This document shows positions 36,977-63,434 of a DNA stretch of 64,000 nucleotides, piece by piece. The DNA is taken from positions 138,178-202,177 of the forward strand of contig JAXGRD010000005.1 in assembly GCA_040766105.1 (NCBI GenBank), written 5' to 3'. This DNA comes from Anaerovoracaceae bacterium. GTDB taxonomy: Bacteria; Bacillota; Clostridia; Peptostreptococcales; Anaerovoracaceae. Made by a program: the position numbers and the translations under genes. Below the pieces are notes generated by a model that was not told the DNA's origin, ran no database searches, and saw only the letters and a list, made by a program, of their open reading frames with translations. Each line of letters opens with the position of its first letter. Positions within the stretch are counted from its first letter, which is position 1.

Positions 36977-36977
36977 A

Positions 36978-37850: not shown

Positions 37851-37862
37851 GGAGGCAATCAC

Positions 37863-38671: not shown

Positions 38672-38689
38672 GAAAGGAAGGTAGAAAAC

Positions 38690-39775: not shown

Positions 39776-39785
39776 GTGGAAAAGC

Positions 39786-40373: not shown

Positions 40374-40387
40374 AATAACGGAAACTG

Positions 40388-40423
40388 CTGCTCCGCCTTG
40401 GATTGCCAGGGTGGAGCAGTTTG
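40388..40423 (+). terminator. weak terminator-like hairpin after echF
   Basis: CTGCTCCGCC-12 nt-GGTGGAGCAG followed by only TTT. Confidence 0.35.
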
Positions 40424-40437
40424 ATATTACAGGGGTG

Positions 40438-41532
40438 ATGATGGACGTTTTTGTCATTGTATTGGCAGCCTTTGCTGCCTTGGGATTTTTGGATAAAGCC
40501 ATAGGTGGTCGATTCGGTTTTGATAGGGAAATTGATAGCGGGCTTTCCACCATGGGCACCATGTCCGTATATATTGTGGGTATCTACTGTGTAGGAACCG
40601 TACTCATAGAGGGGAATTCCGAAACGATTGGAAATGCCACCTCCTTTTTGCCTATGGATCCCTCCATCCTCTCGGGAGGAATACTCGCCCCGGATTTGGG
40701 CGGCCAACCTATCGCCATGGGTTTGGCGGAAGATCGGGACATGGGCTTCTTTTCGGGGCTGGTCATCGGTGGTTGTCTGGGACAATTCGTTAGCTTTCAA
40801 CTTCCCGTCATCTTTGCCGTTCTCGATATGGAGACCAAACAGAAGATGGTCAGAGGATTTATCTATGGAATCATAGCAATTCCTGCAGGTCTGGTTGTGG
40901 GTGGCTTAGTCATGGGAATTCCACCGGGCAAGCTCTTTCTCAACATCAGCATCATCACTCTGATTTGCCTTGTCCTCCTCATGGGATTCCTCAAGGCGCC
41001 GAAACAAACGGAGAAGATCATTCTTACCTTTAGCAATATCATTAAATTCATTTGTCAAATCCTCTTCGTGATTGTCATTGCCGGTCTATTCATCCCCAAG
41101 CTGTCCTTTGTTCCCGGCGATTTGGTCCTCAATGCCCTTCTCATTGTCTTCCGCATGTCCATCATCGTCTGCGGTGGTTTGGTCCTTACGAGAATTCTCA
41201 CTATGTATTTCGGGAAGGCCTTTGACTACTTGGGTGAGAAGATGGGGACGGACAAGCTGGGCATAATCGGCCTCATGCTGAACATGATCAATAGCATAAC
41301 GGCCATTACCTTGTTTAGCAAGATGGATGACCGTGGGAAGATTATCAACGGGGCCATCTGTGTTAGCGGCGCATATATTCTGGGAGGTCAATTGGCCTTT
41401 GTCATCTCCGTTGCTCCTGCCTACGTTTTTTATGGCTATATTGCATCTAAAATTACTGCTGGAGGACTGGCACTGGCCATCGCTCTTCTCGGGGAGAGAA
41501 AAAGAAATTTGAATCAGTCTCCCCTTGTATGA
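40438..41532 (+). CDS. EutH-family (ethanolamine-permease-like) membrane protein
   Basis: Polytopic, about 365 aa. The N-terminal LGFLDKAIGGRFG and LAPDLGGQPIAMGLAED resemble EutH (LIAAVDRIL..FGG / LACDMGGFFLAKELA) as I remember it. The start is set at the ATG at 40438. Confidence 0.55.
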   Translation: MMDVFVIVLAAFAALGFLDKAIGGRFGFDREIDSGLSTMGTMSVYIVGIYCVGTVLIEGNSETIGNATSFLPMDPSILSGGILAPDLGGQPIAMGLAEDRDMGFFSGLVIGGCLGQFVSFQLPVIFAVLDMETKQKMVRGFIYGIIAIPAGLVVGGLVMGIPPGKLFLNISIITLICLVLLMGFLKAPKQTEKIILTFSNIIKFICQILFVIVIAGLFIPKLSFVPGDLVLNALLIVFRMSIIVCGGLVLTRILTMYFGKAFDYLGEKMGTDKLGIIGLMLNMINSITAITLFSKMDDRGKIINGAICVSGAYILGGQLAFVISVAPAYVFYGYIASKITAGGLALAIALLGERKRNLNQSPLV

Positions 41533-41569: not shown

Positions 41570-42958
41570 ATGGAAAAAAGAAAAGGGAAAGCGGAGCGGC
41601 AATACGAAGCAGACTTTTATAAAATCATGGCCGATAACTTCGGTGATGAAATTTTTGTGACCGACGGAAAGGGAATCACGATATTCGTCAATCCTGCGGC
41701 AGTGGAGGTCATTGGAAAACCTGTTACAGAAATCATCGGACGGCACGTAGACGACTTGGTTGAGGAAGGCTTCTTCAAGCCCAGTGTCACCATGGAGGTT
41801 CTTCGCCAGAGAAAGACCGTTTCCATTATCCAAAAGGTAAAGGAGGATAAGGCTGTTCTGGCAACGGGAGTCCCGATTTTCGGAGACGACCGAGAAAACA
41901 TCATCATGGTAATCAGCACCACAAAGGACGTGGATGCGCTAAATCACCTATTGGGAACCGTGGAATCTCAGCAGGAGGAAATCACCAACTTGCGAGACAA
42001 CGTGTTCTCTGAGGAGGGTTTTATCTCAGTGGACCATGGGATGAAAGAAATCAAGAATACCTTGGTAAAGATAGCCGACCTGGATATGGCAATCCTTGTA
42101 GAGGGAGAGACCGGTGTGGGGAAGGAAGTTGCGGTTCGGACCATTCATCACTTTGGGATTAACAGAAAGGGACCGCTTTTCAAGATAAACTGTGGGACAA
42201 TACCTGAAAATCTCATTGAATCGGAACTCTTTGGATATGAAGCCGGTGCGTTTACCGGTGCCGAGAGGAACGGGAAAAAAGGAAAGATCGAGATGGCCCA
42301 TGGGGGAACACTGTTTTTAGATGAAATTGGGGAGCTTCCGTTGAATTTGCAAGTCAAGCTCTTAGACTTCCTCCAGGAAGGGACTTTTACACGGGTGGGC
42401 GGTACCGAGCCGATAAAAATAAATGCGCGGGTGATTGCCGCCACCAACCGAGACCTTCGCAGGATGTGTGAAGAGGGCACTTTCCGAAAGGATTTGTACT
42501 ACCGCCTGAGCGTCATCCCTGTTCGAATTCCACCCCTTCGGGAACGACCGGATGACATCGATGCCTTGACTCGATACTTTGTTTCTCGGTACAACTCCAA
42601 ATACAGAAGCCACAAGGGAATCGATCCGGAGTTCTATGCCGTCGCCCGAAGCTACAGATGGCCGGGAAATATCCGTGAGTTGGAACATATGATTGAGAGA
42701 ATCTACGTGATGACGGAAGGCGAATTTATCAAGAAGGAGGATTTCGAGAAGATCATGCTAATGGAACACGAGGACCATCGCCAGGGCTCCAACGTAATCT
42801 GCATGGGAATCATGAACCTGAAAGAAGCGAAGTGGGAAGTGGAGAAACAATTGGTTCGTCATGCCTATCAAAAGGAGGGGAGTACCTATAAAGCTGCCAA
42901 GGTTTTGGGGGTGGATCAATCCACGGTGGTAAAGCTCTTAAAAAAGCACGAATCCTAG
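41570..42958 (+). CDS. sigma-54-dependent transcriptional activator (PAS - AAA+ - HTH), paralog 1
   Basis: GETGVGKE Walker A, ESELFGYEAGAFTGA (GAFTGA loop) and a C-terminal Fis-type HTH. The stop codon is TAG. Confidence 0.9.
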   Translation: MEKRKGKAERQYEADFYKIMADNFGDEIFVTDGKGITIFVNPAAVEVIGKPVTEIIGRHVDDLVEEGFFKPSVTMEVLRQRKTVSIIQKVKEDKAVLATGVPIFGDDRENIIMVISTTKDVDALNHLLGTVESQQEEITNLRDNVFSEEGFISVDHGMKEIKNTLVKIADLDMAILVEGETGVGKEVAVRTIHHFGINRKGPLFKINCGTIPENLIESELFGYEAGAFTGAERNGKKGKIEMAHGGTLFLDEIGELPLNLQVKLLDFLQEGTFTRVGGTEPIKINARVIAATNRDLRRMCEEGTFRKDLYYRLSVIPVRIPPLRERPDDIDALTRYFVSRYNSKYRSHKGIDPEFYAVARSYRWPGNIRELEHMIERIYVMTEGEFIKKEDFEKIMLMEHEDHRQGSNVICMGIMNLKEAKWEVEKQLVRHAYQKEGSTYKAAKVLGVDQSTVVKLLKKHES

Positions 42959-43086: not shown

Positions 43087-43102
43087 TGGCATTGATATTG
43101 CT
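43087..43102 (+). promoter_or_regulatory. sigma-54 (-24/-12) promoter TGGCAT-tgata-TTGCT
   Basis: GG-N10-GC spacing is exact. It lies 46 nt upstream of the corrinoid-protein ATG and directly downstream of a sigma-54 activator gene. Confidence 0.75.
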
Positions 43103-43147: not shown

Positions 43148-43801
43148 ATGGCAAGAGAAGATTTAATGAACAGAGCTTTCGAAGCAATCGTTGAAGCCGA
43201 TGAAGATATGGCTACCGAAGTGCTGGAAGAAGGCGAAAAGGAAGGAATCACTGCTGTAGAGCTGCTGCAGGAAGGATTCAGTAAGGGAATGAACGAGCTG
43301 GGTGACAGATTCGGTCGTGGAGAAGTTTTCCTTCCCGAATTGATCTTTGCAACAGAAGTCATGAAAGTCGTTACCGACAAGGTAGACGAAGAATTGGCTG
43401 CCAAGGGTGGCGAAGCAGAGGAAAAGGGCAAGATGATCATGGCGACCGTAGAAGGTGACGTTCACGATATCGGAAAAGGTATCTGCGTATCCATGCTGAA
43501 GTCTGTTGGCCTGGAAGTATATGACCTGGGACGTGAAGTACCTGCCGATGTCATCATCGAAAAGGCGAAGGAAGTCAACGCTGACATCATCGGAACTAGT
43601 GCTCTTCTCACCACCACAATGGTAGTGCAGAAGGAAATCGAAGAGAAGTTGGCTGCTCAGGACTTGAAGAAGGAGTTCAAGACCATGGTAGGTGGATCAC
43701 CGATTACACAGAGATGGGCTGACAAGATTGGTGCAGACGCTTACACCGAGGACGCGTCCGAGTGCTGCCAGAGAGCTCTGAAGTTTATTGATGAGAAATA
43801 A
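43148..43801 (+). CDS. mtbC: methyltransferase-cognate corrinoid (B12-binding) protein
   Basis: 217 aa. N-terminal helical cap plus a B12-binding domain with DVHDIGK (DxHxxG). The symbol is assigned only from adjacency to mtbB. Confidence 0.75.
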   Translation: MAREDLMNRAFEAIVEADEDMATEVLEEGEKEGITAVELLQEGFSKGMNELGDRFGRGEVFLPELIFATEVMKVVTDKVDEELAAKGGEAEEKGKMIMATVEGDVHDIGKGICVSMLKSVGLEVYDLGREVPADVIIEKAKEVNADIIGTSALLTTTMVVQKEIEEKLAAQDLKKEFKTMVGGSPITQRWADKIGADAYTEDASECCQRALKFIDEK

Positions 43802-43822
43802 GGAGTAGAAAGGAGGATTACA

Positions 43823-45214
43823 ATGAGTGATAAAAAGTATTTCACCCGTATGGGCGACGGCGAAGCAACATGGATGACCAAAGACGAGCTGAAAGCTGAT
43901 GTTCTTGCCGGAATGGAAGACGCCGTAGTTAAGGGCAAGTCCCAGCCTATGAGCGACGAAGATGTTGAGCACATGATGGAAATCTTGACCATGCCCAACA
44001 AGCTGGTCAGTGTTGAGCCGGGTAATGAAGCCATCACCACATTTGACGCAGGAACCTTGAAGGCACCTGTACGATCCGGATTGCCGGTAGACAGAGGAAC
44101 GGACATCCTCATGCACGAGAGAGTGCTTTGTTCCGATTCCATGGAATTGTGTAACACAGACTACAGCTACAAAGCAATCAAGAATATCGCACCGGAAGAA
44201 GGAATGGCAATGGAGGCTGTACAGCAGCAGACCATCATTCCCCTATTCTACGGCGCAATGCCCAACATGGGATTATACACCAAGCCTGACGGCCCGGTAG
44301 ATAACTGGTCCATGCTCCTTCCCGAAGGGAAAATCAAGGAAGCTATGGCGGCACAGGAAGAAGCTGCAGAGCTGTGTGCGGCAGATATGATCTATATCGG
44401 CTCCATCATGGCAGAAGCAGGTGCTGACGGTATCCAGTTTGATACAGCGGGAGCATCGGGAGATGCCGACGCTTTGGCAGCTCTCAATGCCGCAAAGGCA
44501 TTGTCCGAGAAATATCCGGACCTTTGCATCACCATGGGTATGGCAAACGAGTTCCACTTGGGAATGCACGGCAGACTCAAGTTTGAAGGAGACAAGATTG
44601 CGGGACAGTATCCGGCAGCACAGGTAAAGACTTGTGAAAAGGCCGGCGTACACAGCTACGGTTGCGTAGTTAACACCAACAGCAGCAAGTCCTTTGCATG
44701 GAACCTGGCGAGAGCCACAACTTATGTACAGCAGGCTACAAGAGTAGCGAACATTCCTGTTCTGGTAGATGTAGGAATGGGTGTTGGCGGAATTCCTCTG
44801 ACCAACGTTTCACCTGTTGATGCTACTTCGAGAGTATCCAAGACCATGATTGAAATCGGCAAAGCCGACGGATTGTAGATAGGTCACGGAGATACATTCG
44901 GAATGGCTGCCATTCACGAAGCTGCTGCCGGAATGGGCGGCGTACGAGCTGCCGGAGATCTGGTTGCACGTATGGTCTTCAAGGGAATGAAGCTAAACGA
45001 AGCAAAAGAATATGTCGCAGGAAAACTGGGATGCAGTACAATGGATTTGTCTGATGAGGCTGCCATGAAGGAGATCAGGGAAACTCTGGATATCGGTCAC
45101 ATCATCATCACTCCTCATGCATCTTACGGAATGGCTGCAAAGATTAAGATTGCAGAACTGCTGGACATCACTATTCCTAGCGTTGAGATGTTTAAGAAAC
45201 GTGTAGGTATCTAA
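43823..45214 (+). CDS. mtbB: dimethylamine:corrinoid methyltransferase with an in-frame TAG (pyrrolysine codon) at 44876-44878
   Basis: The track ORFs 43823-44878 and 44903-45214 share a frame and are joined by TAG-ATA-GGT-CAC-GGA-GAT-ACA-TTC-GGA. The combined 463 aa is colinear with Methanosarcina MtbB (PLFYGAMPNMGLY, GADGIQFDTAGASGD, MGMGVGGIP, RAAGDLVARM). Confidence 0.85.
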
Positions 45215-45222
45215 GAATATAT

Positions 45223-45268
45223 GGTATACAGCTCGCAGGAAGGACCTGCGGGCGTATACCTGATTTTT
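45223..45268 (+). terminator. strong intrinsic terminator after mtbB
   Basis: GGTATAC-a-GCTCGCAGG-aagga-CCTGCGGGC-GTATACC, about 16 bp with one bulge, followed by TGATTTTT. Confidence 0.7.
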
Positions 45269-45322
45269 GACTCATGTTACTTATCACTCCAATACGAAAG
45301 GAATATAGGAGGAGAAATAGAA

Positions 45323-46894
45323 ATGGAAAATAACAATTTAGGGAAAAAACAAAAGAAATTTGATGTTCCGCAAATCGTTGTCAGCTGTGCCGTCTTGTTT
45401 GCCTTCGTTGCATTTATGGCGATTAAGCCGGAGATGACACTGAATGCGGTTAACAGTTCCTTTGACTGGCTCATCAAATACTTTGGTTCCATGTTGCTCA
45501 TCTTTACCTTTACAGCTGTTATTATATCGGTATATTTTTGCTTAAGCGGTAAATACGGCAACATCAAATTAGGAGATGCCGAGCCCGAATACAACATGTT
45601 CAGTTATGTGGCCATGATGACCCTTGCTGCTGTTGCATCTGCACTGCTCTACTGGTCATTTACTGAGTGGGCATACTACTATGTGTCCCCGGGAATTGGA
45701 ATCGAGCCGGAATCCATACAGGCGGCGGAGGCTTCATTGGGTTACGCTTTCTTCCACTGGGGTATTTCCGGGCAAGCCATCTACGTGGTCATCGCCTTGG
45801 CACTATCCTATGCTTACTACATCAGAAAGGTGCCGGAACTGCAGACCAGTGCTATCTGTGTTGAGATGATGGGAGACAGATTGAACCCTACCGCCAGAAC
45901 CGGTCTGGGCAAGGTCATTGACTTCGTCGTTATCTTTGGAATCGTTGGTGGTCTTGGATGTTCTTTGGGTCTGGCAGTGCCTCTGGCCGGCGGCGCTTTG
46001 ACTCAACTCTTCGGAATTGACGTCACCTTCCCCATTCAGGTGGGCATCGTACTGTTCATCGCAGCGGTATTCACCTTTACATCCTTTATCGGAACGAAAA
46101 AAGGAATGAAGAACTTGAGTAACGGGTCGGTTATCTTGGCAGGCGTATTCCTGCTTTGGATCTTCTTGACAGGACCTACGGACTTTATCATGAAGAATAC
46201 AGCAAACTCCTTTGGATGGATGTTGGAAATCTTCCCAAGAGCTAGTCTCTTTACCGATCCCATTGCCGATACAGGCTTCCCGGAATCATGGACTCTGTAC
46301 TTCCAGGCATTCTACCTGAACTACGGTGCCATGATGGGAATCTTCATTACCAAAATCTCCAAGGGCAGAACCATCAGACAGCTCTCCATTGCATCCCTCA
46401 TCGGAATCAGTGTGGGCGGTTGGTTGGTGTTTGCTATAGATGGCAGTTTCTCCATCTACTCCCATGTGAACGGATTGACAGACGTTGTAGAGTTAGTAAA
46501 CAGTAACGTAGGAGAAGCCGGAATCTATCAGGTTCTTGAACTCTTGCCCGGCGGCGCAGTATTCCTTCCTGCTTTGGTGTTAATCATCATGGTTGGATTT
46601 GTGGCATCCTCTTTGGACTCCGCTTCCCTTTCGCTGTCACAGACGACCCAGCCCATACCGGAAAAAGACGGCAATGTCAACAGATGGCTTCGTGTGTTCT
46701 GGTGTATCGTATTGACGCTGGTACCACTGTCCATCATGTTTGTAGAAGCAAACTTCTCGATTCTAAAAATATTTTCAATCGTTGTATCCATACCGTTTAT
46801 GTTCGTGGTCATCTTCCTGATGTACAACTTCTTCAGATGGCTGAAGGAAGATGAGAGAGCAGGCAAATTGGACAATATCGGTTTGAAAAAATAA
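45323..46894 (+). CDS. BCCT-family (betaine/carnitine/choline-type) transporter
   Basis: 12-TM profile and BCCT signature ...WTLYFQAFYLNYGAMMGIFITKISKGRTIRQL. The ATG at 45323 lies behind AGGAGG. Confidence 0.8.
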   Translation: MENNNLGKKQKKFDVPQIVVSCAVLFAFVAFMAIKPEMTLNAVNSSFDWLIKYFGSMLLIFTFTAVIISVYFCLSGKYGNIKLGDAEPEYNMFSYVAMMTLAAVASALLYWSFTEWAYYYVSPGIGIEPESIQAAEASLGYAFFHWGISGQAIYVVIALALSYAYYIRKVPELQTSAICVEMMGDRLNPTARTGLGKVIDFVVIFGIVGGLGCSLGLAVPLAGGALTQLFGIDVTFPIQVGIVLFIAAVFTFTSFIGTKKGMKNLSNGSVILAGVFLLWIFLTGPTDFIMKNTANSFGWMLEIFPRASLFTDPIADTGFPESWTLYFQAFYLNYGAMMGIFITKISKGRTIRQLSIASLIGISVGGWLVFAIDGSFSIYSHVNGLTDVVELVNSNVGEAGIYQVLELLPGGAVFLPALVLIIMVGFVASSLDSASLSLSQTTQPIPEKDGNVNRWLRVFWCIVLTLVPLSIMFVEANFSILKIFSIVVSIPFMFVVIFLMYNFFRWLKEDERAGKLDNIGLKK

Positions 46895-46996: not shown

Positions 46997-48424
46997 ATGG
47001 AGAAAGAAAACCAAAAAAACTTTGATAACCTATCGGAAATCGTCCTTATTGAAGACCCTGTTGGCAACATTAAATATGTCAATAAGGCTTTTTGCGATTG
47101 TCACGGTGTTTCTCAAGAAGAGGCTATAGGAAGAAGTTGCTTCGACTTCATCATTCCCGAAGACCGTGAGCGGTGCACCATGCACAATGTGGTCACGCCT
47201 GAAAATTCCAGTTATCGAATCGAAGGAAGGTCTAAAAGGGTCGATGGCAAGATCATTTGGATTCAATATGTGGGAAAGGCTTTCTTCTCCGAAGAAGGAG
47301 AACTTCTTGAATTCCAGGAGTTGGGTGTGGACATCACCCAATGGAAGGAAAAGATTGCCGAAAAGACAAAGGAGCTGGAAAAGGCCAATGAACAGCTAAA
47401 CAGACCTAAAATTTCGGTAGCGGAGACCAAGGTTTCCGGTGGTAAGAATAGTAGCCGCAGAAATGCAGCCATATATAAGTTTTCCGACATTATTACGGCA
47501 AATCCCAAACTTATCGGTCAGAAGACTTATGCGGAAGCGGTAGCCGACGGAGAGTGTTCGGTCCTCATTGAAGGGGAAAGCGGCACCGGCAAGGAGTTGT
47601 TTGCCCAAGCCATCCATAACGGCAGCCGGCGAGTCAACGGTCCCTTCGTAGCGGTGAACTGTGGTGCCATTCCAACAGAGCTAATCAGCAGTGAGTTCTT
47701 TGGCTATGAGGAGGGGGCATTTACGGGAGCGGCAAGAGGCGGCAAGGCGGGAAAGTTTGAGCAGGCCTCGGGAGGAACTCTTTTTCTCGATGAAATCGGA
47801 GAAATGCCCATGGCGCAGCAGGTGGCACTTCTCAGGGTATTGGAGACAAAGTCGGTTACCAGGGTAGGGGGAAATAAAGAAATTCCCATAGATATTCGCA
47901 TTGTCTGTGCCACCAACAGGGACTTACTGGATGAAATCAACCAAAACCGCTTCAGGCGGGACCTGTACTATCGATTGAATATCATCAATATAAAGATCCC
48001 ACCCTTGCGGCAGAGGCGAGAAGATATATACTTGCTCATAGGATACTTCATCAAAAGGTTCGGAAGCAATTCCTTTGCCAAGAGGGCGGCCTTCAGCGAT
48101 GAACAGCTCATTCGACTTTACAACTATGACTGGCCGGGGAATGTGAGAGAATTACAAAACGCAGTAGAGAGGATGCGCTTTCGACCGGAAGAGACGGTAG
48201 ACGAGATCTTGGGAACCATGCAAAGTCAAACTTTGGGAGTGGATAAAAAAACAAAAGGGGAATTGAAAGACAAAGGAAAAATCGGGGAACAAGAAGCCTT
48301 GGAAGAAGCCTTGGAGTTGTGTGAGGGTAACATCAGTATGGTGGCCAGAAAATTAGGAATCTCACGGAAAACCGTATATAAGCGCATGGAGAAATACCAT
48401 ATCCAAGGTGGACAAAAACTGTAA
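46997..48424 (+). CDS. sigma-54-dependent transcriptional activator (PAS - AAA+ - HTH), paralog 2
   Basis: GESGTGKE, SSEFFGYEEGAFTGA and a C-terminal HTH. Confidence 0.9.
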   Translation: MEKENQKNFDNLSEIVLIEDPVGNIKYVNKAFCDCHGVSQEEAIGRSCFDFIIPEDRERCTMHNVVTPENSSYRIEGRSKRVDGKIIWIQYVGKAFFSEEGELLEFQELGVDITQWKEKIAEKTKELEKANEQLNRPKISVAETKVSGGKNSSRRNAAIYKFSDIITANPKLIGQKTYAEAVADGECSVLIEGESGTGKELFAQAIHNGSRRVNGPFVAVNCGAIPTELISSEFFGYEEGAFTGAARGGKAGKFEQASGGTLFLDEIGEMPMAQQVALLRVLETKSVTRVGGNKEIPIDIRIVCATNRDLLDEINQNRFRRDLYYRLNIINIKIPPLRQRREDIYLLIGYFIKRFGSNSFAKRAAFSDEQLIRLYNYDWPGNVRELQNAVERMRFRPEETVDEILGTMQSQTLGVDKKTKGELKDKGKIGEQEALEEALELCEGNISMVARKLGISRKTVYKRMEKYHIQGGQKL

Positions 48425-48431
48425 CCTTAAC

Positions 48432-48463
48432 AAAAACTGTAACCCTGAAAGGTTACAGTTTTT
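48432..48463 (+). terminator. intrinsic terminator after activator 2
   Basis: AAAAACTGTAACC-ctgaaa-GGTTACAGTTTTT. Confidence 0.7.
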
Positions 48464-48518
48464 GCATACGCAAGAAAGGAGAGTCTATAAAAAGGGTTGA
48501 AATCAAAGGGTTGTATTT

Positions 48519-48534
48519 TGGCACAGAAGTTGCT
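48519..48534 (+). promoter_or_regulatory. sigma-54 promoter TGGCAC-agaag-TTGCT (consensus)
   Basis: Perfect TGGCAC-N5-TTGC, 55 nt upstream of the mttB ATG. Confidence 0.85.
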
Positions 48535-48588
48535 CTATATAGTTGCAACAAATCGTTTTTCATAAAGAACGTTAGATGGGAGGTCATT

Positions 48589-50067
48589 ATGGCAAAACGA
48601 AAAAAATCAACAGTTGGCGCATTGGATAATTTGAAGTGTGCCAATTCCTATGGGAATAAACTTACAGATGATGAACTTTACGCGATTCATGCAGCAAGTC
48701 TGGAAGTTCTGGCTGAAATCGGAATCAAGGTGGAAAGCAAGAAAGCGCAAAAGATATTTGCTGACGGCGGTGCCACCATTGATGGTGACTTTGTAAGAAT
48801 TCCTCCTTCCTTGGTGGAAGAATGCATCCGCACGGCTCCTTCCGTGATTAAATTGGCAGGCAGAAACCCCAAGAACGATTACATTATCAAGCAAAAGAAA
48901 GTAGCGTTTATCAACTTTGGCGAGGGGGTCAATGTAATCGATCCCTATACAAAGGAATACAGAAGGTCCACCAAGGAAGACCTGGGTCGCAACACTAAGG
49001 TTGCCGACTCCCTAAAGGTGCTTCCCGTTGCCTATCGATCTGTTGCTGCGCAAGATAAGCCGGGTGCAGTACAGGCGCTTCACAATATGGAAGTCATGTT
49101 TCACAACACATCCAAGCATATTTTTATCGGACCCGATGGTGCGGTAAATGCGTCGAAAATTATCGACATGGCCGCATTTATCATGGGCGGCAAGGACGTT
49201 CTTCGGGAGAGACCCATTGTGACATTTAACGTTTGTCCCACCAGCCCTCTCCAACTGAACCCCACGGCGGCAGATACCATTATCGTCGGTGCGGAACATG
49301 GAATCCCCAGCAATGTTATATCCATGGCACTGGCAGGGGCAACCGGACCGGTTACCATGGCCGGCGTCTTGGTTACACACAATGCAGAGGTTCTTTCTGC
49401 TGTGGTTCTTTCCCAGCTGACCAAAAAGGGCGCACCGGTACTGTACGGTAGTTCTACATCCATGATGGACATGCGCCACCTCACTACGCCGGTAGGGGCA
49501 CCGGAATTGGCAATGATCAGCAACGCCGTTGCACAGTTGTCCCAGTACTATCTGCTACCAAGTTTCGTAGCCGGTGGTTAGGCAGACAGCAAGTTACCCG
49601 ATGCACAGGCTGCTCACGAAAAGACCTTAACCGCTATGATGGCTGCCCAGGGCGGCGCCAACCTGATATACGGTGCAGGAATGATCGAACTGGGCATGAC
49701 CTTCGACCTTGCCCAACTGATTATCGACTCAGAAATCTACAAGATGGTATTGCATACTGTAAAGGGATTTGAAGTCAATGAAGAAACGTTGGCTCTTGAT
49801 GTAATCAAGGAGATTAAAACAGGAGAATTCGTTTCTCATCCTCATACAGTGACCAACTTTAAGGACATCCAGTCTCACTCCAACGTGATCAACCGACAGT
49901 CGAGAGAAGCTTGGCTGGCAGGCGGATCCAAGGATATGACAACGGTTGCCTACGAAAAAGCAATAGATATTCTTGAAAATTACACGCCGGATCCCCTTAC
50001 GGATGAACAGGCAGAATATATCAAAAAAATCGTGGAAGATGCGGAAGAGGAATACGGAGTGAAGTAA
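48589..50067 (+). CDS. mttB: trimethylamine:corrinoid methyltransferase with an in-frame TAG (pyrrolysine codon) at 49579-49581
   Basis: The track ORFs 48511-49581 and 49636-50067 share a frame. The junction reads ..[28 protein letters not shown].., matching ..LPSYVAGS-Pyl-SDAKVPDDQAGHEKTMT.. of Methanosarcina MttB as I recall it. The ATG at 48589 (MAKRKK) lies behind GGGAGG. Confidence 0.85.
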
Positions 50068-50078
50068 AGGAGAAAATC

Positions 50079-50711
50079 ATGAGCAAGGTATTAAGAAATC
50101 TTAGAGAAGCCATTGAAGACGGCGACATGGATGAAGTGGTGGAGCTGGTTCAGGAAGCATTGGATGACGAAGTCCCCGCCCAAGAAATCCTCAACGACGG
50201 CCTCATTGAAGGGATGAACGAAGTGGGAGATATGTTTAAGGATGGAGAAATGTACGTTCCTGAAGTACTCATGTCGGCCAATGCCATGGATGCGGGGATG
50301 GAAATTCTCAAACCCTACCTGAAGGAAGGGGATGTGAAGAAAGTTGGGAAGGTGGTATTCTGCACTGTAAAAGGAGACCTTCACGATATCGGAAAGAAGC
50401 TCTGCGTCATGATGATGGAAGGCGGCGGCTTTGATGTAGTGGACTTAGGTGTAGATGTAGGTGTTGAAGATATCATGGCGGCAGTGGAAGATCATCAGCC
50501 CAATATTCTGGCAATGTCTGCCATGTTAACCACGACGATGGTTACCATGGACGAGGCAGTAAATGCACTGGAGGAAGCGGGAAAAGATGACATAAAGGTG
50601 ATGGTAGGGGGCGCACCTTTGTCGGGAGATTATGCAGAAAATATTTCTGCCAACTATTCCGAAGATGCCATTGCCGCTGTCGCTTTAGCAAACAAACTTT
50701 TGGGAAACTGA
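50079..50711 (+). CDS. mttC: methyltransferase-cognate corrinoid (B12-binding) protein
   Basis: 210 aa with DLHDIGK (DxHxxG). The symbol comes from adjacency to mttB. Confidence 0.75.
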   Translation: MSKVLRNLREAIEDGDMDEVVELVQEALDDEVPAQEILNDGLIEGMNEVGDMFKDGEMYVPEVLMSANAMDAGMEILKPYLKEGDVKKVGKVVFCTVKGDLHDIGKKLCVMMMEGGGFDVVDLGVDVGVEDIMAAVEDHQPNILAMSAMLTTTMVTMDEAVNALEEAGKDDIKVMVGGAPLSGDYAENISANYSEDAIAAVALANKLLGN

Positions 50712-50824: not shown

Positions 50825-52237
50825 ATGATGGAACACAAAGATGAAAAGATGGATATTCTTTTTAAGGTTATGGACAACGAAAATGACGTGACCTTAACAG
50901 ACGGAAAGGGTGTTGTCATCAGAATCAGTGATTCCTACGAAAAGCACTACAATGTTTCAAAAGATGAAGTGATAGGAAAGTCCATTTGGGAATTGGAAGA
51001 TGTGGGCATATTTAAACCCTCCGTCACCGCCATCGTGCTGGAGAAGAAGTGCAAGGCGACTATATTGCAGAAGAACATGATGGGGGAAAGCATTCTCACT
51101 ACAGGAGTTCCCATTTTTGATGATGAAGGAGAAATTGAATATGTGATCAGCTTCAATTCCATTGACATCGCCAACATGAATTCCCTTCAAGAAAAGTACA
51201 ATAAACTAACGGAATTAATGCAAGCATACAACGAAGAAATCAATGCTCTCAGGATGGAGGAAATCAAGGACAAGGAATTGGTCACCAAAAGCAACCACAT
51301 GGAGAAGATTAAAACATTGGTAGACCAAGTTGCCGACACCCATGCAAACATCTTGATAACAGGAGAAACGGGTGTGGGGAAGAGCATGATTGCAAAAATT
51401 GTCCACCAAAAGAGTGGAAGGGTGGACGGCCCGTTTGTGGAAATCAACTGCGGTACCATACATGAAAACCTAATCGAATCAGAACTCTTTGGCTACGAGA
51501 AGGGGGCCTTTACGGGAGCCAACGAAAAGGGAAAGATGGGCAAGATAGAACTTGCCAACGGTGGCACTCTTTTCCTGGATGAAATCGGGGAACTTTCCTT
51601 GGGCATGCAGATGAAACTGCTGCAGGCGATACAGGAAAAAGAAATTACCCGCGTAGGAGGGCTGAATAAAATCAAGGTGGATTTTCGCCTCATTGCAGCC
51701 ACCAATCGAGATTTAAAGAAGCGAATCAAGGAGAATCTTTTCCGAGAAGATCTATACTATCGATTGAACGTGATCCCCATCTCTATTCATCCCTTGCGAG
51801 ATCGCCCCGATGATATTCGCCCCTTGGTGGAGAACTTTTTGGTTCGTGCCAATGGAAAGTACAACCGAAATGTGACGATCCAAGAAGAGGCAATTGCCTT
51901 ACTGGAAAAGCATAGCTGGCCCGGAAATATAAGGCAAGTGGAGAACTTAGTGGAACGTCTGGTCATCATGTCCGTAGGTGACTTGGTTACGGCTTCCGAT
52001 CTTCCCACAGAAATCCGATATGGTGGAAGAAGCCATTACGGCATTGGCGAAACGGACTCACTGAAAGAGATACTGGAGAGCGTGGAAAAGCAGATTGTGA
52101 AAGAAGCCTACGAAAAAGGGGGAACCAGTATTGCCGTAGGGAAAACCTTGAAAATCAGCCAAGCGACCGCTGCAAGGAAGTTGCGTAAATACATTCCCGG
52201 ATATGCGGAACAGCCCAAGAAAGAGGGTAGTCAATAA
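50825..52237 (+). CDS. sigma-54-dependent transcriptional activator (PAS - AAA+ - HTH), paralog 3
   Basis: GETGVGKS, ESELFGYEKGAFTGA and a C-terminal HTH. Confidence 0.9.
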   Translation: MMEHKDEKMDILFKVMDNENDVTLTDGKGVVIRISDSYEKHYNVSKDEVIGKSIWELEDVGIFKPSVTAIVLEKKCKATILQKNMMGESILTTGVPIFDDEGEIEYVISFNSIDIANMNSLQEKYNKLTELMQAYNEEINALRMEEIKDKELVTKSNHMEKIKTLVDQVADTHANILITGETGVGKSMIAKIVHQKSGRVDGPFVEINCGTIHENLIESELFGYEKGAFTGANEKGKMGKIELANGGTLFLDEIGELSLGMQMKLLQAIQEKEITRVGGLNKIKVDFRLIAATNRDLKKRIKENLFREDLYYRLNVIPISIHPLRDRPDDIRPLVENFLVRANGKYNRNVTIQEEAIALLEKHSWPGNIRQVENLVERLVIMSVGDLVTASDLPTEIRYGGRSHYGIGETDSLKEILESVEKQIVKEAYEKGGTSIAVGKTLKISQATAARKLRKYIPGYAEQPKKEGSQ

Positions 52238-52417
52238 TGACTAATAGTCATCTGTGATTACTCCGGTAAATCAGCATTATGCGTCATTCCCGTCCCATTC
52301 TAGTCAAAAATGAATACACCTAAGTTGAGACCTTCGTGAGTCTTTGAAATCATCCTTAGAAACCCTTAAATTTCAATGAAATTCAACCATACTCTTTCAC
52401 ACGACATGCCATTTTTA

Positions 52418-52433
52418 TGGCATGTTCTTTGCT
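52418..52433 (+). promoter_or_regulatory. sigma-54 promoter TGGCAT-gttct-TTGCT
   Basis: Exact GG-N10-GC spacing, 54 nt upstream of the aminotransferase ATG. Confidence 0.75.
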
Positions 52434-52486
52434 TATATTATTCTCAATGATAAGTAAGATCTACCGTAAGGGAAAAGGAGAAGAAA

Positions 52487-53839
52487 ATGGATTTAAGAAA
52501 CAGTTTGCCCAAAATCGTTACGGAGAAAGTACCGGGACCCAAATCTGCAGAAATGCTGAAGATTAGAAAGGACAATGTAACCGATGCCGTGGGGATGCTT
52601 TCACCGGTCTTCGTGGAAAGGGCCGAAGGCGCCATGGTGCTGGACATTGACGGGAACACCTTTGTGGACTTTGTAGCGGGCATCGGCGTGCTCAATGTGG
52701 GCCATTCTCATCCAGAGGTGGTGGAGGCTGTCAAAGCCCAATGTGATAAGTACTTTGCTCCCAATATCAATGTGTTCAACTACGAACAATACCCGAGATT
52801 GGCGGAAAAGCTCAATGAGATTATTCCCATAGATGGAGAAAAGGAAACGATTTTGGTCAACACCGGTGCGGAAGCGGACGAAAATGCCATCAAACTGGCA
52901 AGGCGTTTTACCGGAAGGTCAGAGGTCATTTGCTTTACAGGTGCTTTTCACGGAAGATCCTACATGACCATGGCCATGACCAGTAAGTGCCGCCCCTATA
53001 AAACGGGATTCGGACCATTGCCCGGCGGTGTCCATCGCTTCCCCTTTCCCTACTGCTATCGTTGTCCCTATGGCTTGGAAAAAGAAAGCTGCGGACTACA
53101 CTGTGCAAAGATGTTTGAAGAGAGCTTTTTCCTGGAGTACGTAGCACCGGATCAGGTGGCAGCTATTATCATAGAGCCAATCCTGGGTGAAGGGGGCTTT
53201 GTTGTAGCTCCCGATGAATTCATGGTGGAAATGCGAAGGTTGTGCGATAAGTACGGCATAGTCCTCATTGCCGATGAGATTCAAACAGGCTATGCAAGAA
53301 CGGGGAAGATGTTTGCCTGTCAGCATTGGAGCGTCAAGCCGGATATGGTGGTCAGTGCCAAATCCGTTGCAGGAGGAATTCCCGTTTCCTGTGTCACTGC
53401 AAGACAGGACATCATGGATTCGGTGGGCCCGGGAGAACTGGGTGGAACCTATTCGGGGAACGCCTTGGCCACTGCCTCAGCACTTAAGATTTTGGAAATC
53501 TTGAAGAGGGATGACTTCTGCGGAAAGGCAAATCACATTGGAGATATCCTGACAAAGCGACTCTATGAATGTAAGGAGAAATACGAGATTATTGGCGATG
53601 TGAGAGGTGTCGGTGCCATGATGGCCATTGAGTTGGTAAAGAACAGGGCTACAAAGGAACCTGCCAAAGATGAAACGAAAAAAATCATTGGAGAGTGTAT
53701 CGCAAATGGCCTGGTTGTTTTAGGGGCCGGCGTAAGAGACAACTGTATAAGGTTCCTGACTCCCCTTGTGATTACCGATGAACAGCTGAATGCAGGCTTA
53801 GATATTTTGGAAAAAGCCATTGAAAGAGTAAACGAATAG
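52487..53839 (+). CDS. class-III PLP-dependent aminotransferase (GabT / omega-aminotransferase-like)
   Basis: 450 aa with GIGVLNVGHSHP, FTGAFHGRS, LIADEIQTGYARTG and VSAKSVAGG (PLP Lys). The stop codon is TAG. Confidence 0.8.
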   Translation: MDLRNSLPKIVTEKVPGPKSAEMLKIRKDNVTDAVGMLSPVFVERAEGAMVLDIDGNTFVDFVAGIGVLNVGHSHPEVVEAVKAQCDKYFAPNINVFNYEQYPRLAEKLNEIIPIDGEKETILVNTGAEADENAIKLARRFTGRSEVICFTGAFHGRSYMTMAMTSKCRPYKTGFGPLPGGVHRFPFPYCYRCPYGLEKESCGLHCAKMFEESFFLEYVAPDQVAAIIIEPILGEGGFVVAPDEFMVEMRRLCDKYGIVLIADEIQTGYARTGKMFACQHWSVKPDMVVSAKSVAGGIPVSCVTARQDIMDSVGPGELGGTYSGNALATASALKILEILKRDDFCGKANHIGDILTKRLYECKEKYEIIGDVRGVGAMMAIELVKNRATKEPAKDETKKIIGECIANGLVVLGAGVRDNCIRFLTPLVITDEQLNAGLDILEKAIERVNE

Positions 53840-53856
53840 GATAAGGAGAAGAAAAA

Positions 53857-54879
53857 ATGAAGAAAGTATTGGTAGTAGGATACGGTGTAATTGGGCAGAG
53901 ATTGGCGGACGGTGTGGCGGCCCAGGAAGATATGGAACTGGTAGGGGTGGTAGATGCTGCACCAACCTTGGGCTTGATGGCACTGAGGGAGAAGGGAATG
54001 CCATATAAACTGTACACCCCCAACCAAGAGAAAAAAGAACTGTTGGAAGAGAAAGGCTTTGAAATAACCGGTGTATTAGAGGATGTTCTGCCTGAAGTGG
54101 ATATCGTCTTAGATTCCACCAGCGCTGGCGTGGGTGCCCAAAACAAGGAGCTATATCTAAAGCATGGAAAAAAGGCCATCTTCCAAGGGGGTGAAAGCAA
54201 TGAAATTGCAGACATCTTTTTCCACGGCTATGCCAACTATGAAAAGGGCGTAGGGAAAGACTATTTAAAACTCACATCCTGTAATACTACGGGACTCATT
54301 CGAGCAATTCACTGCTTGGATAAGACGGTGGGAATTGAAAAAGTTGCCATTACCATTGTGAGAAGAGTCGCCGATCCGGGGGACTACCACAGAGGCTTGA
54401 CCAATGCGCTCCAGGTAGACAAGGCTCCCAGTCACCAAGCGGTGGACCTGATGACCATCATGCCTCACATTGATGCCACCGGTATACTGGTCCATACTCC
54501 AGTGACCCACGGCCACTTCATCACGGTTGTGGCAACACCGAAAGAGGACATCTCCGTGGAAGAAGTGAAAAAGGCCTTTGAGAGCCATGACAGAATCAGA
54601 GTCGTCAGCTTGGATCAGGGGTTCCTAGGCAATGCCTCTCTCTTCAAATATGCAAGAGATCTAGGTCGACCAAGGGGAGACCTATATGAAATATGTGTTT
54701 GGGAAGATACCATCGTAAAATCCGGAAAGGACATCATGTTTGGAATTCACATACCACAAGAATCCATTACCATTCCCGAGACCATCGACGGAATACGAGC
54801 TGCACTGGAAATGCAAACCGACGGAGCAGATGCCGTTGCAGCGACCAACAAGTATTTGGGGTTGCCGTCATGGAAGTAG
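53857..54879 (+). CDS. type II (archaeal-type) phosphorylating glyceraldehyde-3-phosphate dehydrogenase homolog
   Basis: 340 aa, colinear with archaeal GAPDH as I recall it: GYGVIGQRLADGV, KAIFQGGE, active-site SCNTTGL, VRRVADP, PSHQ. The stop codon is TAG. Confidence 0.8.
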   Translation: MKKVLVVGYGVIGQRLADGVAAQEDMELVGVVDAAPTLGLMALREKGMPYKLYTPNQEKKELLEEKGFEITGVLEDVLPEVDIVLDSTSAGVGAQNKELYLKHGKKAIFQGGESNEIADIFFHGYANYEKGVGKDYLKLTSCNTTGLIRAIHCLDKTVGIEKVAITIVRRVADPGDYHRGLTNALQVDKAPSHQAVDLMTIMPHIDATGILVHTPVTHGHFITVVATPKEDISVEEVKKAFESHDRIRVVSLDQGFLGNASLFKYARDLGRPRGDLYEICVWEDTIVKSGKDIMFGIHIPQESITIPETIDGIRAALEMQTDGADAVAATNKYLGLPSWK

Positions 54880-54896
54880 GCAGCAAGATCAAACAT

Positions 54897-56111
54897 ATGG
54901 ATGAGTTTGATTGTAAAGGGAAGACGGTGTTATTGCGGGTGGATATCAATTCCCCCATCGACAGTAAAACGAAAAAAATAGTCAACGAAAACAGGATTCA
55001 AAAAAGCATCCCCACCATCGAAGGTCTTCTCCAAAAGGGAGCAAGGCTTGCCATCATAGCTCACCAAGGAGACACCTTGGATTATCCAAACCTGATTTCC
55101 ATGGAGGAGCACGCTGCAAAACTGGGGAAATATCTTGGGAGAAAAGTGAAATACGTGGACGATGTGGCAGGTCCCGCCGCTCAACTGGCTGTGAAGAACC
55201 TAAGAGAAGGGGAGGCTGTTCTTCTGGGAAATTTAAGATACTTGACGGAAGAAGTGTCAACATTTGAGAATGCTGTGAAACTTTGCCCTGAGGAAATGAC
55301 GGAGACCTACTTGGTCCGCAACTTGGCACCATTGATGGACATCTACATCAATGATGCCTTTGCGGCAGCCCACAGAAATGCTCCTTCCATGGTGGCTTTT
55401 CAGGAACTCTTGCCCAGTGGGGGAGGTCTTCTCCTCATGGAAGAAGTATCTTCTCTTTCAAAAGTGTTGACGGACCCGGCAAAGCCCTGCGTTTTTGTGT
55501 TGGGAGGAGCGAAGATTTCGGATGCTTTCGGTATGATGGGAACTGTTCTGGCATCCGGTGCCGCGGACAAAATCTTGACCTGCGGAGTGACCGGCGAGAT
55601 TATGCTCATGGCACAGGGAATATCTTTGGGCAGTGTGAAGGAAGGTTTTATTAAGGATAGAGGACTGGATGTCTTTTGTAAGGATGCGGAAAAATACCTT
55701 TGGGATTATCCGGATAAGATATTGTTTCCTTGGGATTTGGCATATGAAAAGTCCTCCAAGAGAGAAGAAATCTTTGTGAATCGCTTGCCCCAAGAGGAAA
55801 TGTTCATGGACATTGGAGAAGAGACTATCAGGAGATACGGAGAAGAAATAAAAAAGGCTGCCACCATATTTGTCAACGGGCCTGCCGGAGCCTATGAGAA
55901 TCCAATCTTTGAAAAAGGGACAAGGGAAATCCTCGGTTATATAGCAGAAGCGAAGGGGTATTCTGTCATCGGCGGCGGTGATACGGTGGCAGCGGCACAA
56001 AAGTTGGTAGGAACCCAAGGGATTGATTATGTCAGCACTGCGGGAGGTGCCATGGTTCAATACATGTCCGGAAAAGAACTGCCCCTCCTGAAAGCAATGA
56101 TGAAGAAGTAG
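54897..56111 (+). CDS. archaeal-type phosphoglycerate kinase homolog
   Basis: MDEFDCKGKTVLLRVDINSPID...IIAHQGD...VKYVDDVAGP..LLGNLRYLTEE resembles archaeal rather than bacterial PGK. The start is 54897 or 54870. The track ORF from 54693 overlaps the previous gene. The stop codon is TAG. Confidence 0.75.
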   Translation: MDEFDCKGKTVLLRVDINSPIDSKTKKIVNENRIQKSIPTIEGLLQKGARLAIIAHQGDTLDYPNLISMEEHAAKLGKYLGRKVKYVDDVAGPAAQLAVKNLREGEAVLLGNLRYLTEEVSTFENAVKLCPEEMTETYLVRNLAPLMDIYINDAFAAAHRNAPSMVAFQELLPSGGGLLLMEEVSSLSKVLTDPAKPCVFVLGGAKISDAFGMMGTVLASGAADKILTCGVTGEIMLMAQGISLGSVKEGFIKDRGLDVFCKDAEKYLWDYPDKILFPWDLAYEKSSKREEIFVNRLPQEEMFMDIGEETIRRYGEEIKKAATIFVNGPAGAYENPIFEKGTREILGYIAEAKGYSVIGGGDTVAAAQKLVGTQGIDYVSTAGGAMVQYMSGKELPLLKAMMKK

Positions 56112-56118
56112 AAGGAGA

Positions 56119-57381
56119 GTGAAATTGCATAAGGTTCAATTGAAATACGGAAGGGGACAGGTGTCCCTTGCAATTCCTGATCATAATTACATGGGGACAT
56201 TGGTGCCCAAGGATAGGAGCGAATCTTGCAATGAAGAGGCGATAATTGCAGAGGCAATGAACCATCCCATTGGTACCCAGCGTCTAAGAGATATTGTACA
56301 GCCGGACAATAAGGTAGTAATTGTGACCAGCGATATTACACGACCTCTCCCCACCGATAGAATCCTGCCTTCTGTTCTTGAAGAATTGAAGGCAGGAGGG
56401 GTGGCGGAATCCAACATTACAGTCGTCTTCGCCTTGGGAAGCCATCGACCCCATACAGAAGAAGAAAAAATGAGATTGGTGGGAGCGGACATATACCACA
56501 GCGATGTTTTCCTCTTGGACAGCAACATGGAGGACTGCGTTAATTTGGGAACTTGTGACCACGGCACTCCTGCAGACATCTTCAAGCCTGTGGTGGATGC
56601 AGATGTTCGGGTGTGTCTGGGCAACGTAGAGTTTCACTATTTCGCCGGCTATTCGGGGGGAAGTAAGGCTCTCATGCCGGGCGTGTCCAGCCGCAGAGCG
56701 ATTCAAGCCAACCACTCCAACATGGTGAAGCCGGAAGCCCAATCGGGTAGGTTAGAGGGAAATCCAGTGAGGGAAGACATCGACCAAATCACAGAGTTCC
56801 TTCCCATTGAATTCATCGTCAACGTAGTTCTAAACGATAAGGTGAAGATTGTAAGCGCTTTTGCCGGTCATCACAGACTCGCTCATCGGGAAGGGTGCAA
56901 GGCAATCGATGATATGTACAAGATTGAAATCGAAAAGTCTGCGGACATTGTGGTGCTATCTCCCGGGGGCTTCCCCAAAGATATTAATCTCTATCAGGCC
57001 CAAAAGGGTTTGGACAATGCCCAACATGCGGTGAAAGACGGTGGAATCGTTATTTGGTGCGCTGCTGCGGGGGAAGGCTTCGGCGAAAAGAACTTTGAGG
57101 ATTGGATGGTCAATAAAAGCGTGGATGAAATGATTCAAGATATTTCCGAGAAGTTCCTGTTGGGTGCCCATAAAGCGGCAGCAATAGCCATGGTTCTGAA
57201 GAGGGCTTCCGTTTATCTTGTTTCCCAGTTGGAAGAAGAAACCGTTGAAAGAATTGGGTTTACGCACTTTGACTCGCCGCAATCCGCTCTTAATCATGCC
57301 TTATCCATTTTGGGAGAAGATGCGTCGGTGCTGGTAATGCCTTATGCAGGATCCACCTTGCCTTTCTGTCCTAACCTATGA
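56119..57381 (+). CDS. LarA-family nickel-pincer-dependent 2-hydroxyacid racemase/epimerase homolog
   Basis: 420 aa. GTG start behind GAAGGAG. GSHRPH, EFHYFAGYSGGSKALMPG and IQANHS match the LarA catalytic His/His, the cofactor-tethering Lys and the Ni-His positions as I recall them. Confidence 0.8.
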   Translation: MKLHKVQLKYGRGQVSLAIPDHNYMGTLVPKDRSESCNEEAIIAEAMNHPIGTQRLRDIVQPDNKVVIVTSDITRPLPTDRILPSVLEELKAGGVAESNITVVFALGSHRPHTEEEKMRLVGADIYHSDVFLLDSNMEDCVNLGTCDHGTPADIFKPVVDADVRVCLGNVEFHYFAGYSGGSKALMPGVSSRRAIQANHSNMVKPEAQSGRLEGNPVREDIDQITEFLPIEFIVNVVLNDKVKIVSAFAGHHRLAHREGCKAIDDMYKIEIEKSADIVVLSPGGFPKDINLYQAQKGLDNAQHAVKDGGIVIWCAAAGEGFGEKNFEDWMVNKSVDEMIQDISEKFLLGAHKAAAIAMVLKRASVYLVSQLEEETVERIGFTHFDSPQSALNHALSILGEDASVLVMPYAGSTLPFCPNL

Positions 57382-57423
57382 TATAATTCAGAAAATTCGT
57401 ATAATAATATCAAGGAGGTCGCT

Positions 57424-57753
57424 ATGGGTTATGTTAAAGTTGACTCCCTTGACCGGTTGCCACCGGGTCAAATGAAGGGGTACACAGTGGAAGGAAGAAA
57501 AATCCTCGTTGCAAATGTCGATGATTCCTTCTACGCCATGGACAATACCTGCCCCCACATGGGTGGTGTATTAAGTGAAGGAAAATTGGAAGGAAGCCAT
57601 GTGGTTTGTCCGAAACACGGGTCTATTTTTGATGTAACCAGTGGGAAGGCAGTGCAAGATGGCAAGATGTTTTTTATCAAAGCGAAGGTGCATGACTTGA
57701 AGGGGTATCAGGTCAAGATTGAGGGGGATGCTATTTTCATTGAAGTGGAGTAG
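57424..57753 (+). CDS. Rieske [2Fe-2S] ferredoxin-like protein
   Basis: 109 aa with CPHMGG ... CPKHGS (CxH...CxxH). The stop codon is TAG. Confidence 0.8.
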   Translation: MGYVKVDSLDRLPPGQMKGYTVEGRKILVANVDDSFYAMDNTCPHMGGVLSEGKLEGSHVVCPKHGSIFDVTSGKAVQDGKMFFIKAKVHDLKGYQVKIEGDAIFIEVE

Positions 57754-57764
57754 GGGGATTAGAG

Positions 57765-59657: not shown

Positions 59658-59730
59658 TTCTTGAATACCCCATATGAAATACTTTCATGAGGACGGCGAT
59701 TCTTAGGAGTAAGAAATGCCGTTCTCAATC

Positions 59731-59759
59731 TTGACTTTACCCTATCAGTAGTATAAACT
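59731..59759 (+). promoter_or_regulatory. sigma-A-like promoter (TTGACT-17 nt-TAAACT) upstream of nifJ
   Basis: Hexamers read directly, about 70 nt upstream of the ATG. Confidence 0.4.
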
Positions 59760-59827
59760 TCTATACATGTTTGAACAGGTAGGGAAGTAATTTGTTATTG
59801 TTCCCGTATACTTAAAGGGAGGAAATA

Positions 59828-63361: not shown

Positions 63362-63434
63362 GTTACGGAACGAGTGGTACAATAGGCATATAATGTAAAT
63401 AACGAACATTGCTTAATGTAGAAGGGAGGCCAAC

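Follow-up and report, generated by a model that had tools for sequence, protein, structure and literature searches.

An in-frame TAG at the predicted pyrrolysine position of a trimethylamine methyltransferase gene, mttB, in the methylamine locus of an uncultured Anaerovoracaceae-like bacterium

The methylamine locus described here lies within a stretch of 64,000 nucleotides (positions 138,178 to 202,177 of contig JAXGRD010000005.1, assembly GCA_040766105.1; hereafter the window) from a bacterium assigned to the Anaerovoracaceae, and it carries two methyltransferase genes, mtbB and mttB, together with genes for corrinoid proteins, a transporter and sigma-54-dependent regulators (Table 1). The subject of this work is mttB, which specifies a predicted trimethylamine:corrinoid methyltransferase and which contains an in-frame TAG at the position where homologues encode pyrrolysine (Pyl). 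Translation of the forward strand from 48589 to 50067 gave a frame of 492 codons with a single internal stop, the TAG, and a terminal TAA. The open reading frames (ORFs) that are called mechanically at 48511-49581 (356 amino acids (aa), with a TTG start) and 49636-50067 (143 aa) share this one frame, which confirms what had been claimed in an earlier prediction made from the letters of the DNA (the original prediction). The true start of mttB is likely the ATG at 48589, which is preceded by GGGAGG 5 nt upstream. Following the TAG there are 161 sense codons, and by our own arithmetic the chance of such a stop-free run at the base composition of the window is approximately 4e-4. Six Logan metagenome assemblies that independently represent this organism carry the identical TAG. 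They are 99.65-99.98% identical to the window and show no more than one K/R change over the whole of mttB, and sequencing error was consequently ruled out as the origin of the TAG.

For family searches mttB was translated with X at the TAG. The resulting protein matched the Pfam family MTTB (PF06253) from residue 12 to residue 488 in one stretch that runs across the TAG (E-value 2.8e-102), and its score with the NCBIfam equivalog TIGR02369 ([trimethylamine--corrinoid protein] Co-methyltransferase), 654.3 bits, lay above the cut-off of 525, residues 24-486 corresponding to positions 5-469 of a profile of 469 positions. The best match among solved structures was MttB of Methanosarcina barkeri (7xcl/7xcm; E-value 2e-103, 350 bits), a protein of the same fold family (7XCL/7XCM/7XCN; PMC9842639) with which the alignment extends over residues 23-487 and in which the UAG occupies the identical column, as position 331 of the window protein aligns with X334 of 7xcl_A. 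The expectation that the TAG is codon 331 and stands in the Pyl334 column was thereby borne out. The glycine-betaine methyltransferase MtgB of Desulfitobacterium hafniense (2QNE, 9YCE), which does not contain pyrrolysine, likewise has PF06253, a TIM-barrel and corrinoid-dependent methyltransferase activity and was also matched (E-value 2e-70). It scored just 241 bits, however, which is some 110 bits below MttB, and MtgB-type enzymes act on quaternary amine substrates and have a sense codon, specifying Leu, in the column where the window has TAG. Assignment to the non-Pyl branch of the MttB superfamily (enzymes of the MtgB, MtcB, MtpB or MtyB type) was rejected on these two grounds, and the TIGR02369 score together with the difference in structure-match scores supports the earlier claim that mttB encodes a Pyl-type trimethylamine (TMA) enzyme rather than a member of that branch.

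Gly110, Met249, Tyr364 and Gly372 have been described as active-site or corrinoid-contact residues in the structure of M. barkeri MttB (PMC9842639), and all four are kept in the window protein as G111, M246, Y361 and G369, respectively, the equivalents of Tyr364 and Gly372 being encoded 3' of the TAG. When GTDB was searched with each species represented by a single genome, 36 related loci (designated here by numbers prefixed with L) were obtained, and 31 genes, namely the window gene, those of 29 full-gene loci and that of L051, were aligned. The equivalents of M246, Y361 and G369 proved invariant in all 31 genes and that of G111 in 30 of them. Thr111 of M. barkeri MttB is replaced by Glu in every one of the 31 bacterial genes; only the backbone of this threonine is used in the MttB structure (PMC9842639).

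The same alignment established that the TAG is present at the Pyl column in 31 of 31 genes, that is, in the window gene and in all 30 full-length bacterial homologues, and that in each aligned homologue the frame continues beyond it for 160-176 sense codons up to a true stop. A 30th locus, L035, likewise has the TAG, although its contig breaks off ahead of the true stop. These loci were found in Anaerovoracaceae metagenome-assembled genomes (MAGs), Sinanaerobacter chloroacetimidivorans, Lentihominibacter, Bengtsoniella, Desulfosporosinus, Dehalobacterium, Candidatus Formimonas and Desulfobacterales, and the best genome match to the window MttB was an Anaerovoracaceae MAG with 95% amino-acid identity. 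When the N-terminal part was compared with the database, nearly all of the 120 best homologues proved to be 327-344 aa long, as would be expected of proteins that gene callers have cut at this TAG. Amino-acid identity to the window was as high beyond the TAG as ahead of it, with values for the two parts of 95%/93% in L007 and 75%/81% in L010. When the part following the TAG was compared with that of L007 by the Nei-Gojobori method, 55 synonymous and 18 non-synonymous differences were counted, corresponding to a ratio of non-synonymous to synonymous rates (dN/dS) of approximately 0.05, and values of 0.05-0.07 were obtained against L051, L010 and L018. Since the DNA of L007 is only about 80% identical to that of the window, with synonymous sites nearly saturated, this selection has been at work through a long period of divergence in the very lineage that has no adjacent pyl genes, and purifying selection on the segment beyond the TAG argues strongly that the UAG is read through.

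Table 1. Features of the methylamine locus, in order of position in the 64-kb window.
Feature	Position	Strand	Remarks
Second sigma-54 enhancer-binding protein gene, upstream of mtbCB	41570..42958	+	Pfam Sigma54_activat 4.5e-65
mtbC-like, corrinoid protein	43148..43801	+	B12-binding_2 + B12-binding; TIGR02370 212 bits
mtbB, dimethylamine methyltransferase	43823..45214	+	Pfam Dimeth_Pyl on both halves; TAG 44876-44878, codon 352
BCCT-family transporter gene, between the mtbB and mttB modules	45221..46894	+	Pfam BCCT 3.9e-110; NCBIfam BCCT models
Sigma-54-dependent enhancer-binding protein gene, presumed activator of mttBC	46997..48424	+	PAS_9, Sigma54_activat 1.8e-68, HTH_8
13-mer AAAAACTGTAACC, three copies	direct 48414-48426, 48432-48444; inverted 48451-48463		read from sequence
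Putative sigma-54 (-24/-12) promoter TGGCACagaagTTGCT	48519..48534	+	55 nt before ATG; perfect TGGCAC-N5-TTGC at 48519-48533
mttB, trimethylamine:corrinoid methyltransferase	48589..50067	+	492 codons incl. one UAG (predicted Pyl); Pfam MTTB, TIGR02369, PDB 7xcl/7xcm
Predicted pyrrolysine codon, in-frame TAG, codon 331	49579..49581	+	aligned to X334 of M. barkeri MttB
Match to Rfam PYLIS_3 (RF02510), read as conserved coding sequence	49579..49678	+	89.1 bits vs gathering score 38
mttC, cognate corrinoid (B12-binding) protein	50079..50711	+	Pfam B12-binding_2 + B12-binding; GDLHDIG (DxHxxG)

It is highly probable that the region from 48589 to 50067 represents a functional mttB of an uncultured Anaerovoracaceae-like member of the Bacillota, the product of about 492 residues being obtained only when UAG 331 is decoded as pyrrolysine. 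Decoding of the UAG would rely on Pyl-tRNA(CUA), to which PylS attaches the pyrrolysine synthesized by PylBCD, all of these components being encoded elsewhere in the genome, and the pyrroline imine of the inserted residue would bind and activate trimethylamine, after which the methyl group would be passed to the Co(I) of the adjacent MttC and from there onward to tetrahydrofolate. The data establish the anatomy of the gene, the position of its TAG, its family, the retention of active-site residues and purifying selection beyond the TAG; we infer not only the insertion of pyrrolysine but also that this genome contains pyl genes, as well as the substrate, the cue to which the regulator responds and the acceptor of the methyl group. 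The last of these is presumably tetrahydrofolate rather than coenzyme M because the host is bacterial, which would set the system apart from that of M. barkeri, and the occurrence of metF, fhs, fchA and folD in the window fits methyl transfer to tetrahydrofolate. As in M. barkeri, mttB adjoins a gene for MttC in which the DxHxxG motif with its His-on ligand is recognizable, and the presence of both B12-binding domains in the product of mttC confirms that mttB is followed by its corrinoid protein gene, as had been proposed.

The same prediction had placed a consensus sigma-54 promoter before mttB, and the analysis upheld it: the perfect TGGCAC-N5-TTGC motif is the sole match of its kind in 64 kb and stands beside a gene for a sigma-54 activator. 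The site occurs at the same offset (-70) in L007 and is conserved upstream of mttB in L007 and L012 only, the other relatives having a different operon layout, and no sigma-70-like site was found in the gap between 48424 and 48589. Sites with one mismatch, TGGCAT-N5-TTGC, are located at 43087-43101 before mtbC and at 52418 before an aminotransferase operon, each 3' of another sigma-54 activator gene, while rpoN itself is not in the 64-kb window. In the proposed scheme the PAS-domain enhancer-binding protein, whose gene immediately precedes mttB, activates transcription of mttBC from the sigma-54 promoter and thereby renders expression conditional; such control by sigma-54 and an enhancer-binding protein would be a further difference from M. 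barkeri mttB. The three AAAAACTGTAACC repeats at 48414-48463 could be binding sites for the activator or, alternatively, a terminator hairpin of the upstream gene.

Recoding would most likely proceed without a dedicated RNA structure, by competition of Pyl-tRNA with the release factor at the UAG. Dependence of the read-through on a cis-acting PYLIS structure directly 3' of the UAG was considered and appears distinctly improbable, even though the Rfam PYLIS_3 model (RF02510) is matched well above threshold (89.1 bits) and codons 326-345 show a slight increase in synonymous-codon identity (0.45-0.48, as compared to a gene mean of 0.395). The model specifies very few pairings to begin with, and at two of the three central ones the window has non-standard pairs; the 100 nt from the UAG onward fold worse than shuffled versions (minimum free energy z = +1.71, with 196 of 200 shuffles at least as stable); and RNAalifold predicted 0 pairs for 25 non-redundant sequences (the window and 24 homologues), in which the variation is three-periodic. 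Synonymous-codon identity is equal or higher at codons 19-37, 401-419 and 450-464, and the constraint after the TAG is therefore not special. PYLIS_3 was accordingly rejected as a functional RNA structure, since the tests of folding energy, covariation and synonymous sites were all negative, and the Rfam hit is better read as conserved coding sequence, the match mirroring conserved codons that include those for ...GGANxIYG. This agrees with the paper from which the PYLIS families derive, which reports that no structure is shared in the mttB region (PMC3639795). At the TAG of mtbB, Rfam PYLIS_2 is matched at 44876-44975.

Several observations weigh against a Pyl-decoded mttB. There is no tRNA gene of any kind in the 64-kb window as judged by ARAGORN, and hence no pylT, and NCBIfam and Pfam scans of its approximately 50 ORFs revealed no PylS, PylB, PylC or PylD; exact-protein look-ups likewise placed no pyl genes in the 10 kb past the 3' end, where a Na+/H+ antiporter, uvrB, uvrA, EamA and NAPRTase are found. 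On the 5' side, which is reached only on contigs of less than 2 kb, no pyl genes were seen either. Directly 3' of mttC there is an unrelated sigma-54 operon in the window and Rieske and PFOR genes in L007. MttC scored 184 bits with TIGR02370 (pyl_corrinoid), slightly under the cut-off of 215, and neither a RamA-type activase nor a methylcorrinoid:tetrahydrofolate methyltransferase was found in the window. Finally, TAG is a common genuine stop, ending 12 of 51 window genes (TAA 23, TGA 16), so that its read-through would have side effects unless regulated; M. barkeri differs in this respect, TAG being rare there as a stop. Many proteins would be lengthened by unregulated suppression, and conditional expression is plausible for that reason. 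Among the relatives, TAG is also the true stop of mttB in seven Pyl-decoding loci (L010, L011, L015, L017, L026, L027 and L039), where the same codon thus serves as sense codon and terminator within one gene, and in L010 and L011 the terminal TAG is immediately followed by TGA.

In relatives the pyl genes usually adjoin mttBC or mtbCB. A tRNA-Pyl (CUA) was detected by ARAGORN 4-6 kb downstream of mttB in L010, L011, L016 and L017 and upstream of it in L026, L032 and L039, and the gene order in L011 is mttB-mttC-(224-aa gene)-RamA-like-pylT-pylB-pylC-pylD-pylSn. The organism represented by L051-L058 has the order mtbC-mtbB(TAG)-BCCT-sigma-54 activator-(233-aa gene)-mttB(TAG)-mttC followed directly by pylC, pylD and pylSc, which, save for the extra 233-aa gene, is the order of the window. 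Linkage of pyl genes was seen in three further clusters, and in three related clusters the pyl genes lie directly downstream of mttC. Given that this position is taken by other genes both in the window and in L007, the pyl cassette appears to be unlinked in the window lineage, in contrast to several close relatives in which it is adjacent to mttBC. A likely precedent for unlinked pyl genes is the isolate Sinanaerobacter chloroacetimidivorans, whose MttB is 78% identical to that of the window and for which the longest listed contig with PylD is of 204,751 bp as compared to 420,178 bp for the mttB contig. No PylD homologue could be tied to the window organism through shared samples, every candidate belonging to another organism with another sample set, and the DNA of L081 is only 71% identical. 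A possible location is suggested by mtbB, as the region 43726-44881, which includes its N-terminal part, is nearly always found alone on a unitig of about 1.1 kb in public assemblies (one is of 1.8 kb), one such unitig occurring in at least 20 samples, while L001, L002 and L004-L006 begin at 44854. Such a pattern is the signature of a repeat and probably reflects a second, near-identical copy of mtbB elsewhere in the genome, a copy that could mark where the missing pyl cassette is located. A further assembly of the same organism, L043 (GCA_040776205.1, JAXHBB010000011.1), is 97% identical to window positions 53374-64000 with 106 gap openings in 10.7 kb and has its genes shattered into fragments; it looks like an uncorrected long-read assembly, and its annotation is for this reason unreliable for judging the pyl genes.

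With the pyl genes unseen both in the window and in the 10 kb beyond it, with the position that they occupy in three related clusters filled by other genes in the window and in L007, and with TAG frequent as a normal stop, it could be argued that mttB is a pseudogene or truncated gene, possibly following loss of the pyl cassette, in which the TAG is a real stop that yields a 330-residue fragment and the downstream frame is decaying. The conservation data make this very improbable: the 161 codons beyond the TAG are intact and are retained relative to L007 at the low dN/dS given above despite near-saturated synonymous sites, the equivalents of Tyr364 and Gly372 that they encode are invariant, mtbB shows the same pattern of a single TAG, and the TAG is fixed in the window, in L007 and in all other aligned genes. 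The selection data are instead consistent with Pyl decoding of mttB and with pyl genes that would be present elsewhere in the genome.

Gene callers predict exactly two ORFs in every assembly, as would be the case if the enzyme were split into polypeptides of 330 aa and 143 aa, the second arising by re-initiation at ATG 49636, which assemble without pyrrolysine. The 18 codons between the TAG and this ATG are nevertheless among the best conserved of the gene and align with residues 335-352 of M. barkeri MttB, yet would stay untranslated, the catalytic residue itself would be lost, and the non-Pyl members of the family are single chains with Leu at the Pyl column; the conservation of these 18 codons in particular rules against a two-polypeptide enzyme, which we hold to be exceedingly improbable. 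Decoding of the UAG by other means, through an amber suppressor or a general reassignment of TAG that places a standard amino acid at position 331, would accord with Pyl machinery being unseen in the available sequence but can practically be dismissed, because TAG terminates 12 of 51 genes and so is not generally reassigned, tRNA genes are absent from the window, tRNA-Pyl and pylBCD adjoin mttB in relatives that share the TAG, and the activation of TMA requires the pyrroline ring (PMC9842639).

Pyl-encoding mttB genes of bacteria are established in Acetohalobium arabaticum, Olavius symbionts and Bilophila (PMC7593587), and Pyl-type mttB has already been catalogued in the Anaerovoracaceae (PMC10653893). 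The window gene resembles these catalogued genes in its in-frame TAG at the Pyl site, its miscalling as two truncated ORFs, its position beside a corrinoid protein gene and a BCCT transporter gene, and its taxonomic neighbourhood. Its class is thus already known and is covered by curated models of Rfam and NCBIfam, and the gene leaves existing knowledge of pyrrolysine unchanged. Two aspects are mildly new, the predicted control by sigma-54 and the apparent separation of the pyl cassette from mttBC in a genome where TAG frequently serves as a stop. As mtbCB-BCCT and mttBC each lie behind their own PAS-domain sigma-54 activator, roughly one gene in four terminates in TAG and a PYLIS structure is lacking, it may be speculated, tentatively and with more doubt than confidence, that the pyl cassette has moved from, or was lost at, the position following mttC, and that methylamine-sensing sigma-54 activators coordinate in trans the expression of the methyltransferases and a conditional expansion of the genetic code. 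The extreme version of this proposal, a genome devoid of any pylBCD that relies on exogenous pyrrolysine or another suppressor, is at best scarcely credible. We know of no description of such a sigma-54 regulatory circuit for pyrrolysine.

No enzyme apart from Pyl-type MttB is known to us to remove trimethylamine under anaerobic conditions without itself producing TMA, and Pyl-type MttB is consequently relevant to the formation of methane and acetate from methylamines and to the lowering of TMA and trimethylamine N-oxide (TMAO) in gut communities. Because gene callers split such genes at the TAG, each Pyl-type mttB that is correctly recognized improves annotation, and the present case adds a putatively sigma-54-regulated mtbCB-BCCT / mttBC locus of an uncultured Anaerovoracaceae-like, acetogen-type bacterium which recurs in approximately 30 public sequencing runs, among them SRR24475103-116, SRR27558879/81 and ERR14098862-69.

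A number of additional features were observed in the surroundings of the locus. The third sigma-54 module, at 50825-57381, occupies the position of the pyl genes in the three related clusters and comprises an activator gene, the TGGCAT-N5-TTGC site at 52418, an operon for a gamma-aminobutyrate (GABA)-type class III aminotransferase, an archaeal-type (type II) GAPDH, PGK and a nickel-pincer malate racemase of the LarAH6 family; LarB and LarC are encoded at 12741-14037. This block is absent between mttC and the Rieske/PFOR genes in L007, the closest genome. Upstream of the methylamine locus, a membrane [NiFe]-hydrogenase cluster of group 4 (Ech/Mbh or formate-hydrogenlyase-like) with NuoL-, NuoH- and NuoD-like subunits and a 4Fe-4S subunit extends over 35039-41532, and 3' of it, directly upstream of the methylamine locus, there is a gene for an EutH-family permease. 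An IS110-family transposase gene (8154-9317, reverse strand) is inserted between metF (7128-8021) and fhs-fchA-folD of the methyl branch of the Wood-Ljungdahl pathway. A 1.87-kb presence/absence polymorphism at 57739-59603 is present in the window and L001 and absent in L002 and L044, and it carries a 630-aa ORF (57765-59657) without a Pfam or NCBIfam match. By eye this ORF has a signal peptide, a vWA-like MIDAS motif (DASGS) and a C-terminal sortase-type signal (SPRTG, a hydrophobic segment and KRR), and thus looks like a strain-variable, cell-wall-anchored surface protein.

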